Source: a virus. Taken from it: DNA of 18,268 nucleotides. Positions 7,164-18,268 of the stretch are shown piece by piece. Both the position numbers and the translations under genes were made by a program. The notes below the pieces were generated by a model that had not been told where the DNA came from, searched no databases, and saw only the letters and a program-made list of their open reading frames with translations. Position 1 is the stretch's first letter. Every line of letters begins with the position of its first letter. The DNA lies in UHGV virus genome UHGV-0201843, one strand, 5' to 3'.

Positions 7164-8582
7164 TTATTTAATACCACTAAAGAACATAATATTATCTCCT
7201 GCATTTTCCGGTACACCATCAATCAGTGCATATTCAACAACACGACTAGGCGCCCAATAAGGTGGTACGTTATAGTTAGCTGTTAAAAATGAACCATCTT
7301 TAAATACTGCTACAACAACACCTGTATGTCCGACACCCGGTAACATCGCTTGTAGGTAATTAGGTTTACTACTGAATCCATAGCCAACTGTTGGTCGGTG
7401 TGTCACACGTGCGCCTTGATTACGATATACCACCCAAACACGTTGACCGTTTGTGACTTGATTATCCCATGCAGGTTGTCTTTTACCCCATATTTGGTGC
7501 ATATAAGCCCATGTCAATTCTGTACATTGTCCAGTATCACCTGTATTAACAAATGGACTACCTGCTAAATATTTTGGATCAAATTTAGGTACTTCAATGG
7601 CATCTTTATACTTTTGTGGTAAATTGGAATAAGTCCAGTTACCACCTATTTTTCTTCCACTTTTTCCATTAGGCGCAACGGATTTACCAGCTTTTCCACC
7701 ATGATCACCATCACTATCATCAGCACCCGTATCATTTCCACTACCTCCATCAATTCTTGATATTAAGTCTTTCATTTCATCAAGTAATTTTTGATTCATA
7801 TTTAAACGATACGTGTTATTATATGTTTTGGTGATAGTGAACATTTGATTTGAAAAAAATTTATCAGTACCAATAGAGTGCAAATCCCACTGCATACTGT
7901 CTTGTAATTTTTTGAGAAATTCTTCAAAGGCACGTGCCACAACATCAAGCCCACCACTAGGACTACTAGAACTACTTGAACCACTACTTGATCCTCCTTT
8001 ACCGTCTATTTTACCACCCCAACCCAAAATGGTATTTGCTGCGTCTAAAAATGGATTACCGTAAGTTTGAACTCTATTATAACTTGCTTGTAATCCCTCA
8101 GGATAATAAGCAGCCCAAGTTGCAGCAGCTGTTAATGGTATATAAGCACGTCCTACTTTTCCATTTTTCATATTATGTGAAAAGTCATAATTTCCTTTCG
8201 CTTTTACACTAGCAGGAACAAAGTCAACTGGATTTCCTTGGTCTATCCAACTTGGCGTACCTGCTTGACGTGATTGTGAAACAAGTTTACGTGCCACAAA
8301 TTGTGCATCGGTTAAATAATTTCCCTGTGGTGATGTATGATTTAACCAACCCCAACTACCATTATATCCCTCATTTTTTTCATATGCTGCAAAAAGAGCA
8401 GGTGAAACTCCAATGCTTTTAACTGCATTAAGGACTTGCTTAATTTTAGTTGAACTATTTCCACACCATGCAGAAAATCGACCTATACCCTTAACTTTTC
8501 CGACTAAATCATCAACACTTAATCCAAAATCATCATTTAAATTGGAATGTATAAACTTATCAATTTTTTCTTTATCATTCAT
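7164..8582 (-). CDS. Virion-associated (tail-tip) peptidoglycan hydrolase, about 472 aa: N-terminal putative glycosidase-like domain, Gly/Ser-rich linkers, C-terminal CHAP domain
   Basis: ATG at 8582 preceded by GAGGGTG. The track start 8606 is an upstream GTG. CHAP signature Cys in DTGQCTELTWAY and His in GVGHTGVVVAV. Linkers GGKIDGKGGSSSGSSSSSSPSGG and GGSGNDTGADDSDGDHGG. Last gene of the late operon, as for the phi29 gp13-type tail lysin. Confidence 0.7.
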   Translation of the reverse strand: MNDKEKIDKFIHSNLNDDFGLSVDDLVGKVKGIGRFSAWCGNSSTKIKQVLNAVKSIGVSPALFAAYEKNEGYNGSWGWLNHTSPQGNYLTDAQFVARKLVSQSRQAGTPSWIDQGNPVDFVPASVKAKGNYDFSHNMKNGKVGRAYIPLTAAATWAAYYPEGLQASYNRVQTYGNPFLDAANTILGWGGKIDGKGGSSSGSSSSSSPSGGLDVVARAFEEFLKKLQDSMQWDLHSIGTDKFFSNQMFTITKTYNNTYRLNMNQKLLDEMKDLISRIDGGSGNDTGADDSDGDHGGKAGKSVAPNGKSGRKIGGNWTYSNLPQKYKDAIEVPKFDPKYLAGSPFVNTGDTGQCTELTWAYMHQIWGKRQPAWDNQVTNGQRVWVVYRNQGARVTHRPTVGYGFSSKPNYLQAMLPGVGHTGVVVAVFKDGSFLTANYNVPPYWAPSRVVEYALIDGVPENAGDNIMFFSGIK

Positions 8583-8985
8583 CTTTTCCACCCTCTTTTT
8601 TTCCACGTATCACTTTTAATTTTTCACCTATTTCATCTGGAATAAGAACCCCCATTTCTGCACAGTTTTCAATAATAGATAATCCCTCATTAGCAATATA
8701 GAAAAAGATTGTTACCATTAATAATCCATTATTTAAGTTTAAAATTTGATCGATAATATTTGCTAAAATAATAATACAGAAAACAAGTATTTTACGACCG
8801 AATCCATACATTGATTTTCTACTCCATAAATTTTTATTTTTAAAACCTTTTGCTAAACCTGTAATAATATCAACACACATTAATATCATTAAAAAATAGA
8901 GTAATTTTAAATCACCTGCATAGATAAATGTATGAAAAATATCTGTTTGTGTGTATTGTACATTGATTTCACCTTTTTGTTCCAT
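8575..8985 (-). CDS. Holin (3-TM, phage_holin_4_1/LL-H-like), 136 aa
   Basis: Three hydrophobic segments (LLYFLMILMCVDIITGL, ILVFCIIILANIIDQIL, LLMVTIFFYIANEGLSII) and a charged C-terminal tail KKEGGKDE. Stop overlaps the start of the downstream hydrolase gene. Confidence 0.7.
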   Translation of the reverse strand: MEQKGEINVQYTQTDIFHTFIYAGDLKLLYFLMILMCVDIITGLAKGFKNKNLWSRKSMYGFGRKILVFCIIILANIIDQILNLNNGLLMVTIFFYIANEGLSIIENCAEMGVLIPDEIGEKLKVIRGKKEGGKDE

Positions 8986-8993
8986 TAAATATC

Positions 8994-10760
8994 CTACTTT
9001 CTAAATTTATTTTTAAATACATTTTGTGCCATTGGATTATTTGAACCATCATTGTGCCAAAATCTTACACCCGTTTCAAGTAATACTTTTAACTGTTCTA
9101 AAAGCATTGGATCAATACCATCAATGGTATATGTACCTCTCATTCTTAAATAATTGCATACCGTCCATGAATCAATTGGAAACGGTGTGCCTGCTTGATC
9201 GTTGGTTTCAAAACCTAACATAAAATAATAACGTTGGATATTATCCATATCAAATGGTGCGGGTACACCAATTTTCATAGTTAATCCATTAATACTATTT
9301 GCGATTTGGAAAGCATTTCCCATTTCTGAACTTGTTACTGTTGGTGGTTGTAATGCTAAATCCTTATATTCTGCTCGTAATTCTTTATAGTAATTATATT
9401 CATCATTAAATTTTGAAAATAATGCCGTTGGTGAAAGATTTGATCCAATGCTTACAGCATCATAAAATCTTGATTTTAAATCATTACCATTGACAACATT
9501 ATTGATTCTATTTGAAATTAAATTACTTTGTGCATTTTTTTGTTTATTAGCTTGTTGTGATTGAGCAAGTAATCCATTATCAATCAAAATAGGTACTTCA
9601 GCAAAGCTATCAAATGTAATAGCTGTATTTAAGAATGAACCTGTATCTATTAATATTGAATTATCACTTGCTTTGATTGGTTTTTCATTAGGTGCACTGT
9701 TATAATCTACTGGATAAATACGTACCTCGTTATGATATCCAATAATAGATTTTGTTTTTAATTTAACACCTGTTCTTTCTGTTATTTTTCCTGCATCAAG
9801 TAGTAAACTGTCACCATTCCATGAATATATTTCAATCGTTAAATATTCATTTCTAACTAAATGTTTTAATTCATCTTGATTACTATTTAACATATATTGC
9901 AATCGTTCAAATGGTACACGTAATTCTTTTAATTCCCACTCATTAGATAATTTATCATTTTTAAGTGTCATTAATCCTTTTATATCTTCTTGTGTTTTGA
10001 CTGCTTCTAAATCATCTTTATTAATAAATGTTGCAGGTATTAATATGATTTTTTGAAAGTTTTGTGTAATCCATGGATATTTACTCATTTTATCCATAAA
10101 GTTATTAAAATCCTCACGATTCATGACATATAAATTAACTGGACTTGTAATGTAATCGTAAGTAATTCCTTTTGAAGATTCTAAGTTTGGTTCTTTTTTA
10201 GTACCAAATTTTTTAGATAAATCAGCACTTGATTGGAATAAAACAAGATTACCACCAAACTGTTCAAGATAATTATTCAGATAGTATTTGTTACTGGCTT
10301 TAATAACATCATCATTATTTCTCAGTGATGGTAACAAATAATTATAGACCTCACGTGGTAAATGTTGACGTTCAACAAAAGCATTTTGAACAGTAGATAA
10401 TACATTGCCCTGTGTGTAAGTCATGACTGTATCAATGACTAAATACATACGCGTCACATGATCATTGACATATTCAATTTGATTGACAAACGCGTAATAA
10501 CGTCTATTTTCAAAATCAGATTTAAATGTACAATAATTGATACCCTGTGCGTCTTGCCATGACATTTGTTCAAGATTCACCATATTTCTATCACGTATAA
10601 AATTAAATGGTATATTTTTGTAATCAATCGCATAAAAGTGATTTTCATTTAAAAAATAATGATCACGTGCAGCATTTGATGGAAAGTGAATTGTATTCTG
10701 ATAATCTGTCATTGGTGTATTATAGAAAAATTTAAAATGTGTTAATTTTCTATCTGCCAT
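8994..10760 (-). CDS. Tail knob (distal tail tube) protein, phi29 gp9-like, 588 aa
   Basis: AGGAGG RBS 7 nt upstream of ATG at 10760. Size and position match the gp9 tail knob of phi29-like phages. Assignment is by synteny and size, not by motif. Confidence 0.55.
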   Translation of the reverse strand: MADRKLTHFKFFYNTPMTDYQNTIHFPSNAARDHYFLNENHFYAIDYKNIPFNFIRDRNMVNLEQMSWQDAQGINYCTFKSDFENRRYYAFVNQIEYVNDHVTRMYLVIDTVMTYTQGNVLSTVQNAFVERQHLPREVYNYLLPSLRNNDDVIKASNKYYLNNYLEQFGGNLVLFQSSADLSKKFGTKKEPNLESSKGITYDYITSPVNLYVMNREDFNNFMDKMSKYPWITQNFQKIILIPATFINKDDLEAVKTQEDIKGLMTLKNDKLSNEWELKELRVPFERLQYMLNSNQDELKHLVRNEYLTIEIYSWNGDSLLLDAGKITERTGVKLKTKSIIGYHNEVRIYPVDYNSAPNEKPIKASDNSILIDTGSFLNTAITFDSFAEVPILIDNGLLAQSQQANKQKNAQSNLISNRINNVVNGNDLKSRFYDAVSIGSNLSPTALFSKFNDEYNYYKELRAEYKDLALQPPTVTSSEMGNAFQIANSINGLTMKIGVPAPFDMDNIQRYYFMLGFETNDQAGTPFPIDSWTVCNYLRMRGTYTIDGIDPMLLEQLKVLLETGVRFWHNDGSNNPMAQNVFKNKFRK

Positions 10761-10778: not shown

Positions 10779-10810
10779 GTAAAAAATAGACACGCTTTCA
10801 CGTGTCTATT
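10779..10810 (-). terminator. Rho-independent terminator on the minus strand between the coiled-coil fibre gene and the tail knob gene
   Basis: Perfect 10-bp stem aatagacacg / cgtgtctatt (10785-10794 / 10801-10810), 6-nt loop. On the minus strand it is followed by TTTTTT (plus 10779-10784 aaaaaa). Confidence 0.55.
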
Positions 10811-10820
10811 ATATCATAAT

Positions 10821-11618
10821 TTAGTCTATAAATACTGTATTAATTGGACACCATTCATCGCCCGTTGGTGAATCATTTGTTGTACCCTCTAAGACAATAT
10901 CTCCCTCACGTTTAATTGTGATTCTCATAAAGTTGATTGACCCACTTTTTTTAGATGTATTTTGTACATAATAATGTGGATTTGACAACTCACCACTGAT
11001 AGGAATTTTACCAACTGTGTTATTGTCACCTTTATATCCATTGACTGCACCACGTAAAGCAATAGTTCTAATTCCTTTTACAGTTGTTATTCTATATTGT
11101 GGTGGATCAGTATGTGGTGTTAATCCACTACCAGTGATGTTAATATTTTTCCAACCTGTATCTGTAATATTAATTTCATTGATTTTATTCGTATTCGATT
11201 GAATTTTTTCATTTGTTTCGTTTGTTGTTTCGTCAATCTTTTCTGATAACGTTTTTTGTTCTTGTTTCAATTCATCGATATTAATTGAATCAATTTTTTG
11301 TTCATTATCATAGATACGTTTTTCATTATCTGATAGTTTTTCTTGAACTTCTTGTACTTCATCTGGTAAAAATTCAACCTTTTTTATTTTTTCTTCATTA
11401 TTATAAATACGTTGTTCGTTATCTGATAATTTTTCTTGAACTTCTTGAACTTCATCTTGTAATGGTTCGATACTTTCTAAATGAAGAAAACCATTTTTTG
11501 TGTAAATGTAAACATCACCATCAACGGTTGAACATATATCATTTTCGTCAAGAAGATTTGTATTAAAATTTTGTAGGTTATAAATATCTTTGACACTTCT
11601 TACAAATTTACTTGCCAT
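10821..11618 (-). CDS. Coiled-coil fibre-like structural protein (about 265 aa) with internal 31-aa tandem repeat and C-terminal beta-rich knob domain
   Basis: GGAGG RBS then ATG at 11618 (MASKFVRS...), overlapping the amidase stop by 11 nt. The track ORF extends to 11684 inside the amidase gene. Heptad-like repeats LxDEVQEVQEKLSDNExRIYxNExKI occur twice. The C-terminus is Gly/Thr/Asn-rich and beta-like. Confidence 0.6.
   Translation of the reverse strand: MASKFVRSVKDIYNLQNFNTNLLDENDICSTVDGDVYIYTKNGFLHLESIEPLQDEVQEVQEKLSDNEQRIYNNEEKIKKVEFLPDEVQEVQEKLSDNEKRIYDNEQKIDSINIDELKQEQKTLSEKIDETTNETNEKIQSNTNKINEINITDTGWKNINITGSGLTPHTDPPQYRITTVKGIRTIALRGAVNGYKGDNNTVGKIPISGELSNPHYYVQNTSKKSGSINFMRITIKREGDIVLEGTTNDSPTGDEWCPINTVFID
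11292..11462. repeat. Imperfect 93-nt tandem duplication inside the coiled-coil fibre gene
   Basis: Two DNA copies (about 11292-11369 and 11385-11462) encode LPDEVQEVQEKLSDNEKRIYDNEQKI and LQDEVQEVQEKLSDNEQRIYNNEEKI. Same reading frame, period 31 aa. Confidence 0.8.
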
Positions 11619-12507
11619 GCTTTTCAACCTCCAATTTTCCCCAAAGATTTTTTTCATTTTTAATTTTTTCTTGTTTATCTTCAATATGACCTATTGGCAT
11701 ATAGAAATATTTATCGCTTGAACCTTTTTTAGCGTATTTAAACTTAATCCACCATAATTTTGCTTGTTTATCTTTTATGATTTGATAAAACGGTACATAT
11801 TCATTAGGTTGTATATATGAATCTTTATCAACCTCTTTTGCAGTCATACCATAATCATATCTAGGAACAATCGGTAATGTATTTGTTTTATGAGCAGTAA
11901 ATGTACCACGCCAATTATATTTAACGTATTTATTTTCACTCACTTGTGGTTTATCAGGTGTTTTTCCACCGTTTGCATAATGTTTAATACGAGAGATAAA
12001 GTAATCAATCAATTTTAATTGGTTTGCTCTTGTATTTGGTGCATTAACCCCTATGTGTATATCCCAACTACGATGAGGACAAGACGTTGAAAAGTATTCA
12101 CGATGTAGGTGAACCGTATTACGATTAATTGGTAAATTGTATGATTTCATCACATCGGCAACAACTTTAAAAGTAGCTTCTTCATTTTTCATAAATGTTT
12201 CATCAGATATATGATTTGGATAACTTTCACAGACTTCAAAACCAATTAAATGTTGGTTTGCGTATTGATTTCCACAATGCCACTCAACAAAATTTGTAGG
12301 GTGATACCATAAAACCTCATTACGATTGATATAAACTGAAGCCCAACCCTGTGTATACGTACCATTTTGTTCACGTGTATATAACCAGTTTAAATATTGG
12401 CTAGGTGTCATTGAACCGTAATCATTATGAATGACTACGCCATCAATACTAGGTTTTTGACCTGTCAACTTTTGACCTTTAATGTGATTTGAATAAATGT
12501 TTTTCAT
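11608..12507 (-). CDS. Endolysin: N-acetylmuramoyl-L-alanine amidase (Amidase_2/PGRP type) with C-terminal SH3-like cell-wall-binding domain, 299 aa
   Basis: AGGAGG RBS 7 nt before ATG at 12507. Zinc-amidase motifs: His in GVVIHNDYG, and H...E...CP in HLHREYFSTSCPHRS. C-terminal approximately 90 aa is Trp/Tyr/Lys-rich and SH3b-like. Confidence 0.75.
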   Translation of the reverse strand: MKNIYSNHIKGQKLTGQKPSIDGVVIHNDYGSMTPSQYLNWLYTREQNGTYTQGWASVYINRNEVLWYHPTNFVEWHCGNQYANQHLIGFEVCESYPNHISDETFMKNEEATFKVVADVMKSYNLPINRNTVHLHREYFSTSCPHRSWDIHIGVNAPNTRANQLKLIDYFISRIKHYANGGKTPDKPQVSENKYVKYNWRGTFTAHKTNTLPIVPRYDYGMTAKEVDKDSYIQPNEYVPFYQIIKDKQAKLWWIKFKYAKKGSSDKYFYMPIGHIEDKQEKIKNEKNLWGKLEVEKHGK

Positions 12508-12543
12508 TATAATACCTCCTTAAAATTTAAGGATAGGCAAAGC

Positions 12544-14373
12544 CTACCCTAGAATAATCAACCCTTTACTTGATAATGTTTGAGGGTCAACATTGGTAGA
12601 ATATCCATGGTCTTTATCTGTAAATATCCTACTACCATTATACACGTTATAAACTGTTTTGTTACTAGATATGTTAGAACCAAAACAAGTAATTTCACCA
12701 CCACGTGTTGCATAAACGGGTTCATTTTTAGTACCTGAAATATTTGACGCTTCGGCGAACACTTTAGACGCATAAGCTAAAATACCAAAATCACCACTAC
12801 CTTTAATTGTGATTCTATCTGCAAATATTTGACCACCACGTGTGGCTTCAATACCGTTACGACCTGCACGTTCAATCACTGCTTCATTAATAGAAATCAC
12901 TGAACCATATGCCAATACGTTATCATCTTTTGAACGTGATACTTTCGCACCATATGCAGCGACATATCCACCACGTGTGGCTTCTAATCCACGACGACCA
13001 TTTCCATCACAATTAATCAATTGACAATACACATCACCTGCATAAGCAAGTACGCCATTACGTTTATTTCCATTCGTTGTTGATAATCTTGCTTGAACTG
13101 TTGAACCATGTGTACATTGGATTCCGTCAAGTCCGTTTTCATTTGCATTACCACTTGTGAAATCCACTTTTGAATTGTTACTTGCTATGACACCATGCCA
13201 TTTATTACGTGAAGCTGTAGCTTTAGTAGCATCAATTGAACAACCTCTATTTGCCATAATACCACTTGCACCACAACCATTAGCAATCCCTTGATCAAAG
13301 TTAATATTTGATGAACGGGTAGCAATGACACCGTATGTTGTTTGTGAATTTGAGCAATCAGAATATCTTAAATCAATATCACTTGAGGCGTAACTAACAA
13401 CGTTATCATCAATAGTATCAGTGATTTTACAGTTTCTAGCACTGGCTTGTGAACCTGTGGTTACCATTAAACCATGATGACCGTTGAAACGTGCTTCAGT
13501 ATAATCTATATAACCACTTGCACCATGTGAGAAATGAATACCAATCTCACCACAACGATTGACTGTCATGTAATTGGCTGTGAGTGATGAGTTAAATATT
13601 CTTATTCCATCACCATACATATTTTGTTGATTGTTAAATTCTTCTAATTGTTCACGATTACCATTGTAGGAAAAATCACAATAGTTGGCCCCTATATGTG
13701 AACCATTGACACCACATAAACCAATAAAATTAAAGTGTGTTGACCCACCACGTTCAGTCATTTCAAACGTTGTATTATCCATTAAGAAACCACAGTTAAT
13801 ACTATCTGAAAAATCTTTGTTTTGAAGTTTAAAATCAATTTTAGGGAATGTTGAATTAATTCCATAAAATAATGGTTTTACTCTAAAAATTGGATTTGTT
13901 TTTATTTCAACTTGACGATTTAATTCAGTTTCATAGGCTTCTACAATATCATTTTCTGATGTAATCGTAATATGATTATAACGTTTATCACGTAAGAATA
14001 ATTGTTCGCCCATCTTGTAATCTTTAAGTAAAATCACACGTATAGATTTTGGTTGTACAATTAAATCTTCAATATGTTCAAAACAATGATTCAATGTATC
14101 AAAGTCACCTTTTTGTCCGACTGTATAAGTCACATCAGTATTTGATAATGTTAAAGCGTCGTATGTTTCTTTCATTTTTTGTATATCATCTGCTAAACCA
14201 TTGACAAAATCACATAATTCAAAAATAAAACCATTGAAACGTGCTAAGTAATCATAATATGATTTTGAATTGGTATTGTAATCTGCATTGTCTGTATAAA
14301 ATGGTAATCGTGACACACCACGTCTATATCCGTATTCATTATTGTAGTTGATTCGACCGTTATTAATATACAT
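12544..14373 (-). CDS. Tail fibre / appendage (receptor-binding) protein with beta-helix (pectate-lyase-like) repeats, 609 aa
   Basis: GGAGG RBS 7 nt before ATG at 14373. Gly/Asn/Ser-rich beta-solenoid-like repeats (NGSHIGANYCDFSYNGN, GIHFSHGASGYIDY, NGHHGLMVTTGSQ). Position between lower collar and lysis genes as for the phi29 gp12 or P68 fibre. Confidence 0.6.
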   Translation of the reverse strand: MYINNGRINYNNEYGYRRGVSRLPFYTDNADYNTNSKSYYDYLARFNGFIFELCDFVNGLADDIQKMKETYDALTLSNTDVTYTVGQKGDFDTLNHCFEHIEDLIVQPKSIRVILLKDYKMGEQLFLRDKRYNHITITSENDIVEAYETELNRQVEIKTNPIFRVKPLFYGINSTFPKIDFKLQNKDFSDSINCGFLMDNTTFEMTERGGSTHFNFIGLCGVNGSHIGANYCDFSYNGNREQLEEFNNQQNMYGDGIRIFNSSLTANYMTVNRCGEIGIHFSHGASGYIDYTEARFNGHHGLMVTTGSQASARNCKITDTIDDNVVSYASSDIDLRYSDCSNSQTTYGVIATRSSNINFDQGIANGCGASGIMANRGCSIDATKATASRNKWHGVIASNNSKVDFTSGNANENGLDGIQCTHGSTVQARLSTTNGNKRNGVLAYAGDVYCQLINCDGNGRRGLEATRGGYVAAYGAKVSRSKDDNVLAYGSVISINEAVIERAGRNGIEATRGGQIFADRITIKGSGDFGILAYASKVFAEASNISGTKNEPVYATRGGEITCFGSNISSNKTVYNVYNGSRIFTDKDHGYSTNVDPQTLSSKGLIILG

Positions 14374-18094: not shown

Positions 18095-18268
18095 ATCGTT
18101 TCTTATTCATAATCCATCGTTTAATTTTGAATGTATTTTTCTTAACCTTTTACTCAAAATTTCTCTCGCAATGCGCTCAAATTATAGTCTCGTTTTTGGG
18201 AGGGGGTGGGGTGAAGTATAAGAAAAATACATTCAAAATTAAACGATGGATTATGAATAAGAAACGAT
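18095..18268. repeat. Right terminal fold-back element: perfect 50-bp inverted repeat (18095-18144 vs 18219-18268) enclosing the inverted copy of the 65-bp ITR core (18164-18228)
   Basis: Direct reading: reverse complement of 18219-18268 equals 18095-18144 exactly. The repeat ends at the last base of the window. 18164-18228 is the exact reverse complement of 41-105. Confidence 0.85.

Follow-up and report, generated by a model that had tools for sequence, protein, structure and literature searches.

The 18,268-nucleotide (nt) stretch of viral DNA analyzed here (UHGV virus genome UHGV-0201843; the whole stretch is referred to as the window) encodes on its minus strand a 265-amino-acid (aa) protein that appears to be the already known head fiber of Andhra-like phages, ordinary for that group, with a duplicated 93-nt unit in its stalk. 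The window aligns with Staphylococcus phage Andhra at 91% identity over 100% of its length, so that it reads as a near-complete genome of a Staphylococcus epidermidis-type picovirus (Rountreeviridae, Andhravirus), and it is 88 to 90% identical to about 18 other Andhraviruses. Translation of the window places the open reading frame (ORF), 265 aa plus stop, at 10821..11618; a first-pass annotation of the sequence had given these coordinates, and all of its peptide strings are present in the translation, but it left the minus strand unmentioned. The gene and the parts of its product are listed below, with the evidence for each in parentheses.

10821..11618, minus strand: predicted head-fiber gene, 265 aa plus stop, orthologue of Andhra gp13 and P68 gp14 (ORF, blastn, PHROG, synteny, PMC9710869)
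11628..11632, minus strand: Shine-Dalgarno GGAGG, 9 nt upstream of the ATG at 11618 (read from sequence)
11475..11618, minus strand: N-terminal capsid-binding domain, aa 1-48, a beta-prism in Andhra (100% identity to Andhra gp13)
11376..11468, minus strand: stalk repeat copy 1, aa 51-81, EPLQDEVQEVQEKLSDNEQRIYNNEEKIKKV (repeat finders, codon-phase comparison)
11283..11375, minus strand: stalk repeat copy 2, aa 82-112, EFLPDEVQEVQEKLSDNEKRIYDNEQKIDSI, in place of the Andhra-type VIETSVEDNKLKVNEITEKFNSYNLEEMKQ (alignments)
11169..11282, minus strand: distal stalk, aa 113-150, including the invariant IxxNTxxI at 139-146 (model helix 114-147)
10824..11168, minus strand: C-terminal knob, aa 151-265, a receptor-binding-head-like beta sandwich (AlphaFold, Foldseek)

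Identity, architecture, and start of the head fiber

A blastn search with the gene matched 24 Staphylococcus phage records, with S-CoN_Ph32 at 93.5% identity and Andhra, BESEP3, St 134, JBug18, and others at 80 to 82%; the match to Andhra gp13 (82%) extends over 100% of the gene. The product matches PHROG 30677 (E 1.5e-141), and its alignment with Andhra gp13 is collinear apart from a replaced stalk segment, with residues 1 to 48 being 100% identical. The gene lies between the endolysin (upstream) and tail-knob (downstream) genes, as in Andhra, and the same order is present in 12 other records and three metagenomic contigs. The first-pass annotation had correctly placed it between these neighbors (11608-12507 and 8994-10760), but regarded it as an extra gene, a view that does not hold, as the gene is syntenic and conserved in every Andhravirus examined and in P68.

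Andhra gp13 is a head fiber; it is trimeric, with 15 copies in each virion, and mass spectrometry of virions found it to be abundant (99 normalized spectrum counts; PMC9710869). It was modeled on the five portal-proximal capsid hexamers, and the cryo-electron microscopy (cryo-EM) map shows a 30-residue coiled coil; beyond this, another coiled coil is predicted, followed by a C-terminal domain resembling the receptor-binding domains of PSA (6R5W) and TP901-1 (3D8M) (PMC9710869). With the 285-aa Andhra annotation, which starts 18 codons upstream of the start used here, Andhra residues 23 to 66, the part modeled on the hexamers, correspond to residues 5 to 48 of the window protein, and the visible coiled coil, which is trimeric in the Andhra map, to residues 49 to 78, i.e., to repeat copy 1. 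Phage P68 gp14 (481 aa) likewise forms five trimers, in which a helical stalk joins a capsid-binding domain to a receptor-binding domain; the authors propose that the head fibers position the virion tail-down on the cell, and note that phage 44AHJD, which has no head-fiber gene, has a narrower host range (PMC6795507).

The best explanation, and in our view a very probable one, is that the window gene encodes an Andhra-like trimeric head fiber with a capsid-binding N terminus, a coiled-coil stalk carrying a two-copy allele, and a knob like a receptor-binding head. The protein shares with Andhra gp13 its locus, the first stalk unit, the distal stalk, and a knob of the same 113-aa type (~80 to 81% identity), although the knob differs at ~20% of residues and the distal stalk is closer to that of SeAlphi. 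P68 gp14, from a Staphylococcus aureus phage, has the same arrangement of capsid-binding domain, helical stalk, and C-terminal domain resembling a receptor-binding protein (RBP), with five trimers on the P68 portal-proximal hexamers, but at 481 aa it has a stalk of ~284 residues, compared to ~100 here, and is only ~32% identical to Andhra gp13. By analogy with Andhra gp13, three chains would trimerize, and the N-terminal 48 residues would form a beta-prism. Within each of the five hexamers that surround the portal vertex, this prism would sit on the A-domain of every second capsid subunit. The first-pass suggestions of a trimeric fiber with coiled-coil stalk and beta knob, acting as a second receptor-binding protein or a head/neck fiber, fit well with the orthology to Andhra gp13 and with the fold match of the knob.

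The head fibers (gp8.5) of phi29, a related podophage that is small and protein-primed, offer another comparison; they are trimeric and dispensable, sit on the capsid, and are thought to aid attachment. The phi29 fiber shaft is a supercoiled helix-turn-helix repeat, and the fibers decorate the capsid more widely. A Pfam-A scan of the window protein gave no family at E <= 0.01, so that no sequence similarity to phi29 gp8.5 is detected at this level, and the likeness is analogous, not homologous.

A full-length AlphaFold model, built as a monomer from 54 homologues, has a mean predicted local distance difference test (pLDDT) score of 77. Its helices span residues 51 to 81, 85 to 110, and 114 to 147, with breaks at 82 to 84, which is the exact repeat junction (EFLP), and at 111 to 113; residues ~49 to 150 presumably form an alpha-helical, trimeric coiled-coil stalk. 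As read from the sequence, hydrophobic and asparagine residues follow a 3-4 spacing in copy 1 (I50, L53, V57, V60, L64, N67, I71, N74, I78, V81) and in copy 2 (L84, V88, V91, L95, N98, I102, N105, I109, I112), and each stalk unit comprises four heptads plus three residues, with asparagine at two core positions and a three-residue register shift at the repeat junction (V81/L84). A 3-4 pattern with core asparagines is typical of trimeric coiled coils. In the distal stalk, the motif I139-x-x-N142-T143-x-x-I146 is invariant among the 54 homologues, as are K138, N142, and I146. A PDB sequence search gave a weak match of residues 49 to 139 to the trimeric stalk of Moraxella UspA1 (E 0.014), which, like other trimeric autotransporter adhesin stalks, is a repetitive trimeric coiled coil with asparagine at core positions; UspA1 is a bacterial outer-membrane adhesin, however, and the match reflects coiled-coil composition only, not homology.

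Several points weigh against this picture of the protein. The distal stalk and knob are invisible in both cryo-EM maps (Andhra, PMC9710869; P68, PMC6795507); the AlphaFold beta strands at residues 9 to 46 are of low confidence (pLDDT 40 to 69); and the trimeric state of the stalk is something we infer, the models being monomeric. Because a 31-residue period does not divide evenly into heptads and there is a proline at the junction, the stalk modules may be separated by a kink and not form one continuous coiled coil. The PDB search with the whole protein found no solved structure of it, the weak UspA1 match being the only one, and the Andhra and P68 head-fiber models are evidently not in the PDB under this sequence. 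Finally, the family labels in GenBank and PHROG are 'tail protein' or 'minor tail protein', although these are automatic and predate or ignore the cryo-EM.

The same labels (GenBank homologue products, and PHROGs 30677, 9604, and 17481) would suit a tail component, such as a minor tail protein or a second tail fiber beside the main receptor-binding appendages, as would the position of the gene among tail genes, where its neighbors are the RBP and endolysin in one direction and the tail knob in the other, and a knob fold that is that of tail-borne siphophage RBPs. However, cryo-EM of Andhra and P68 puts the N-terminal domain of the orthologues on the capsid hexamers surrounding the portal, the Andhra version of this domain is 100% identical to the one here, and the Andhra tail model explains its densities by other proteins (PMC9710869); the curated record of St 134 also names the gene 'head fiber protein'. 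We consider a tail location very improbable, and an Andhra-like head fiber remains the preferred assignment.

The fiber ATG (11618-11616) lies 8 nt before the endolysin TAA (11610-11608), and the two genes overlap by 11 nt (ATGGCAAGTAA), as the first-pass annotation had described when it placed the ATG inside the amidase stop; the overlap is common among relatives, but not universal in the 14 phages compared. The endolysin stop directly adjoins the fiber ATG in St 134, Ph36, and DSP1, and in BESEP3 and SeAlphi a different, shorter endolysin ends before the ribosome-binding site, with the overlap being absent and the same ATG used. Nonetheless, a GGAGG-spacer-ATG/GTG arrangement is kept in 14 of 14 phages, including the two with an unrelated endolysin 3' end, and we therefore prefer the 265-aa reading from 11618 over a 287-aa ORF and over the longer Andhra, Pontiff, and JBug18 annotations. 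The 287-aa ORF, from a TTG at 11684, was considered as the true gene and rejected, since the GGAGG-ATG is kept even beside unrelated upstream sequence and some relatives start with GTG. Where GTG is the start, as in Ph32 and several metagenomic alleles, gene callers extend the gene upstream. GenBank starts for the head fiber disagree (Andhra gp13, 285 aa; JBug18_13, 325 aa; Pontiff_13, 276 aa), with the longer ones reaching up to 186 nt into the endolysin gene, whereas the conserved GGAGG-ATG would give 263 to 267 aa. With its own GGAGG, the fiber would be translated from the ATG at 11618, its gene being the second of an endolysin-fiber pair in the late minus-strand operon.

The repeated unit of the stalk

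Tandem Repeats Finder reported a 93-nt-period array at 11293-11462 (1.8 copies, 89% matches, no indels, score 284), which is by far the strongest tandem repeat of the window, the other rows scoring <=53 when sub-repeats are set aside; an independent repeat finder gave two 93-nt copies with 83% identity. Compared in codon phase, the copies match at 75 of 93 nt (80.6%) over the full period and at 64 of 72 nt (88.9%) over the core DEVQEVQEKLSDNExRIYxNExKI, and the first-pass description of two near-identical 31-aa units with ~85% DNA identity is a fair one. Five codons differ synonymously and eight non-synonymously, giving 18 sites that distinguish the copies.

We compared the stalk among 13 readable phage records and 79 protein clusters from genomes and metagenomes. 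The records of S-CoN_Ph35 and S-CoN_Ph17 were left out, as they are riddled with frameshifts; both are probably error-rich or chimeric assemblies, with S-CoN_Ph35 having many tiny coding sequences and S-CoN_Ph17 looking chimeric. In the latter, a heavily frameshifted stretch resembling a window-type head-fiber gene lies within an 88-kb Sextaecvirus record (OR354840.1 41263-42102).

Andhra, BESEP3, St 134, V1SC05, PSU3, Ph29, Ph30, and most metagenomic clusters (267 aa) have a single unit, DE(M/V/I)QEVQEKLSDNE, followed by a different segment, VIETSVEDNKLKVNEITEKFNSYNLEEMKQ. In Andhra gp13 the unit reads DE(M/V)QEVQEKLSDNE, and the window protein has a second unit copy where Andhra has this segment. 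The 30-aa segment is swapped in the window for 28 aa that hold the second copy, the protein thus being 265 aa rather than 267 aa, and the distance to the DTGW motif is 152 residues compared to 154 in Andhra-type alleles. Identity to Andhra is 88 to 100% to the left and 83 to 92% to the right, and only 45 to 67% across gene nt ~211-330. The event appears to have been a conversion- or template-switch-type replacement that kept the stalk length, and not a net insertion. Simple tandem insertion into a one-copy ancestor was considered and rejected, as copy 1 has exactly the EEKIK ending of Andhra-type alleles, and the one-copy forms are chimeras with two switch points (see below).

The two-copy allele is also present in S-CoN_Ph32 and in 19 metagenomic protein clusters (P0001-P0016 and P0061-P0063). 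Copy for copy, the window and Ph32 are 98.9% (copy 1) and 97.8% (copy 2) identical, and the P0061 lineage has the same states at 11 of the 18 copy-distinguishing sites. The first-pass annotation had taken the similarity of the copies to imply a recent duplication. However, the same diverged copies recur in Ph32 and the 19 clusters, some of which have knobs only 44% identical to that of the window, and the core divergence between the copies (11%) equals that of either copy from the Andhra unit, which argues that the duplication is old on the scale of the Andhravirus genus.

Proteins of four clusters (P0017, P0022, P0033, and P0036; 234 to 235 aa) lack exactly 31 residues. We examined the DNA of two of these, P0017 and P0022, which are on 17- to 18-kb contigs with normal synteny from different pipelines (Logan and ENA). 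In P0017, copy-1 states extend to unit nt ~67 (bar one copy-2 state at ~51) and copy-2 states begin at ~76, whereas in P0022 the switch from copy 1 to copy 2 falls between unit nt 11 and 21. Because the crossover points differ, one unit appears to have been lost at least twice independently, by recombination or slippage between the repeats, the two stalk copies acting as recombination substrates. The comparison thus provides both two-unit and one-unit alleles, as expected from the first-pass proposal that repeat number varies in such stalks; no three-copy form was found among the 13 phage records and 79 clusters.

The repeat and the copy-number differences could also be assembly or sequencing artifacts, given that the window ends carry fold-back artifacts, that some related records (S-CoN_Ph35 and Ph17) are full of frameshifts, and that the one-copy forms come from metagenome assemblies. 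But the repeat is in frame, with copies differing at 18 sites, and two copies recur in an independent GenBank isolate, Ph32, at the identities given above, and in the 19 clusters, which are from different sources. The copies have no exact run in common longer than 18 nt, and so short a run would not make a k=31-type assembly (the k value of Logan assemblies) collapse; the two one-copy forms, from Logan and ENA, have different crossovers on 17- to 18-kb contigs with normal synteny. Because of this short identical run, we rejected the idea that the one-copy forms arose by assembly collapse. That the repeat and its loss are artifacts is hardly credible to us, and we continue with the interpretation of genuine one- and two-unit alleles.

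Beyond the unit itself, the stalk differs among relatives by a series of in-frame changes. An additional 12 aa in SeAlphi and about 10 clusters is a duplication of KIDSINIDELKQ, and other changes are +7 aa (Ph36 type), +11 aa (P0061-63), +22 aa (P0044), +30 aa (P0068), +13 aa and others (P0055), and -4 aa (JBug18 and Pontiff). Depending on the allele, DTGW is 121 to 195 residues from the start, and the N-terminal domain is of constant length, with the knob having 113 residues in most alleles and up to 120 in a few. The stalk would thus vary generally through in-frame duplications and deletions, with knobs being exchanged between stalk types. A literature search on Andhravirus head-fiber variation returned only a general review.

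The knob and its exchange between stalks

The knob is all-beta, with pLDDT above 90 in the full-length model and 91.5 when modeled alone, in agreement with the C-terminal beta-rich knob of the first-pass annotation. The best Foldseek match is the RBP gp15 of Listeria phage PSA (6R5W; E 3e-4, template modeling [TM] score 0.66), followed by the RBP heads of TP901-1 and p2 (probability 1.00; 3D8M, E 5e-3), and then by adenovirus fiber knobs. Because 6R5W and 3D8M are the structures named in the Andhra paper, Foldseek reproduces the published HHpred statement by another route. The same beta-sandwich fold caps the C-terminal end of a trimeric helical stalk in PSA, TP901-1, and p2, but these heads share only 11 to 16% sequence identity with the knob, and the proteins are siphophage baseplate or tail-tip RBPs, not mounted on the capsid.

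An exhaustive HMMER search with the knob gave 77 representatives, in which the domain is always at the extreme C terminus of proteins of 117 to 711 aa. With tblastn, the knob is 30 to 41% identical to head-fiber homologues in S. aureus picoviruses and ~27% to products of S. epidermidis siphophage genes annotated as baseplate proteins. Searching the PDB with a profile from full-length distant homologues gave messy results, mostly unrelated matches in the N terminus or stalk (9m8o Gp18, 80alpha gp62), and the sole match within the knob was to 30yz, 'receptor-binding protein' (E 1.7e-5); we relied on the fold search instead.

The knob (10824-11162) is ~80% identical at the aa level to those of Andhra-type phages, compared to 94 to 96% for the tail RBP and a genome average of 91% at the nt level. 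Two-unit stalks carry knobs ranging from 96% down to 44% identical to the window knob, and the next-closest knobs (93% and 91%) are on one-unit, Andhra-type stalks. The 44% knob is encoded, in the P0061 lineage, by an ENA scaffold that nonetheless has the same two-copy stalk. In this Andhravirus-like scaffold (17,193 nt; 1-551), a 725-aa protein ending in Peptidase_S74 (an intramolecular chaperone) replaces the 609-aa beta-helix tail RBP, and there is an extra 139-aa gene. The pattern suggests that the fiber knob is a fast-changing or exchanged surface module.

We infer receptor binding by the knob from its fold, its pattern of diversity, and the P68 precedent; by analogy with P68 gp14, it would bind a cell-wall glycopolymer reversibly, helping to hold the virion tail-down. 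An alternative is a purely structural or decorative head fiber, in which the knob would have no receptor role and stalk length would reflect neutral drift of a low-complexity coiled coil. The head fibers of phi29 are dispensable and 44AHJD lives without the gene, and, as stalks across the full range of lengths are all in otherwise complete ~18-kb genomes, length seems weakly constrained. A decorative role sits poorly, however, with a knob that has the fold of bona fide receptor-binding heads, that in 77 distant homologues invariably forms the C-terminal end of a variable stalk, that has diverged further than the remaining structural module (80% versus 94 to 96% for the tail RBP), and that is shuffled between stalk types, with the most divergent knob on a two-copy stalk (44%) being in a phage with a different tail RBP; the host-range comparison of P68 and 44AHJD also points to a receptor role. 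We regard a decorative fiber as unlikely, and a receptor-binding knob is the interpretation that we favor.

What may be modestly new in these comparisons is the replacement at constant length by copy 2, the at least two returns to one copy, and the behavior of stalk and knob as independently exchangeable modules. A broader proposal, which we put forward as a tentative possibility, is that the Andhravirus head-fiber stalk is a hot spot for length tuning, in which short in-frame modules (4, 7, 11, 12, 22, and 31 residues) repeatedly undergo duplication, conversion, and deletion through inter-repeat recombination and knobs move onto different stalks separately from the tail RBP. Fiber reach would then act jointly with knob specificity to determine the coagulase-negative staphylococci, differing in wall, capsule, or biofilm thickness, to which a phage can adsorb, and the two-copy allele would be one state of a reversible 2-to-1 switch rather than a frozen accident.

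Genomic setting and implications

The genes surrounding the fiber gene, together with two hairpins, are as follows.

12544-14373, minus strand: tail receptor-binding protein, beta-helix, Andhra gp15 (domain/PHROG matches, Andhra synteny)
12530..12550, minus strand: terminator-like hairpin between the tail RBP gene and the endolysin (consensus scan only)
11608..12507, minus strand: endolysin, Amidase_2 + SH3b, Andhra gp14; its last 11 nt overlap the fiber start
10785..10810, minus strand: terminator-like hairpin, 11-bp stem plus T run, between the fiber stop and the tail-knob gene (consensus scan only)
8994-10760, minus strand: tail knob, phi29-gp9-like, Andhra gp12
8575-8985, minus strand: holin
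7164-8606, minus strand: CHAP tail-tip lysin

The two hairpins flank the endolysin-fiber pair within the late operon, and the consensus scan gave four terminator-like sites in 2.4 kb compared to 0.8 expected from shuffles; the two that bracket the pair may be attenuators or mRNA-stability elements. An Rfam scan of the window gave no match. In BESEP3 and SeAlphi the endolysin gene is 759 nt, compared to 900 nt here, and has an unrelated 3' end; homology with the window resumes at the ribosome-binding site and ATG of the fiber gene, which places a recombination junction exactly at the gene boundary. Within the minus-strand tail RBP gene, direct repeats with a 135-nt spacing (12833, 12968, and 13103; 63 to 81% identity; 12833-13134 overall) would fit consecutive turns of the right-handed beta helix of this protein.

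The ends of the window fold back on themselves, with 1-39 being the exact reverse complement of 153-191, and 18214-18268 being 96% complementary to 18095-18149. Inside these fold-backs is an inverted terminal repeat (41-124 versus 18145-18228, 95%), as expected, and the outermost ~40 to 55 nt at each end look like assembly artifacts of a linear, protein-primed genome.

These results leave unchanged the basic picture published for Andhra and P68. For annotation, the gene should be labeled as a head fiber and not as a minor tail protein, with its start at the conserved ATG at 11618. S. epidermidis picoviruses are candidates for therapy, and the knob, which differs from Andhra more than any other part of the structural module and is exchanged between lineages, is a plausible secondary host-range determinant for engineering. 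The stalk polymorphisms, with one or two 31-residue units and the other in-frame indels on the same knob, provide an allelic series for asking whether adsorption depends on fiber length.

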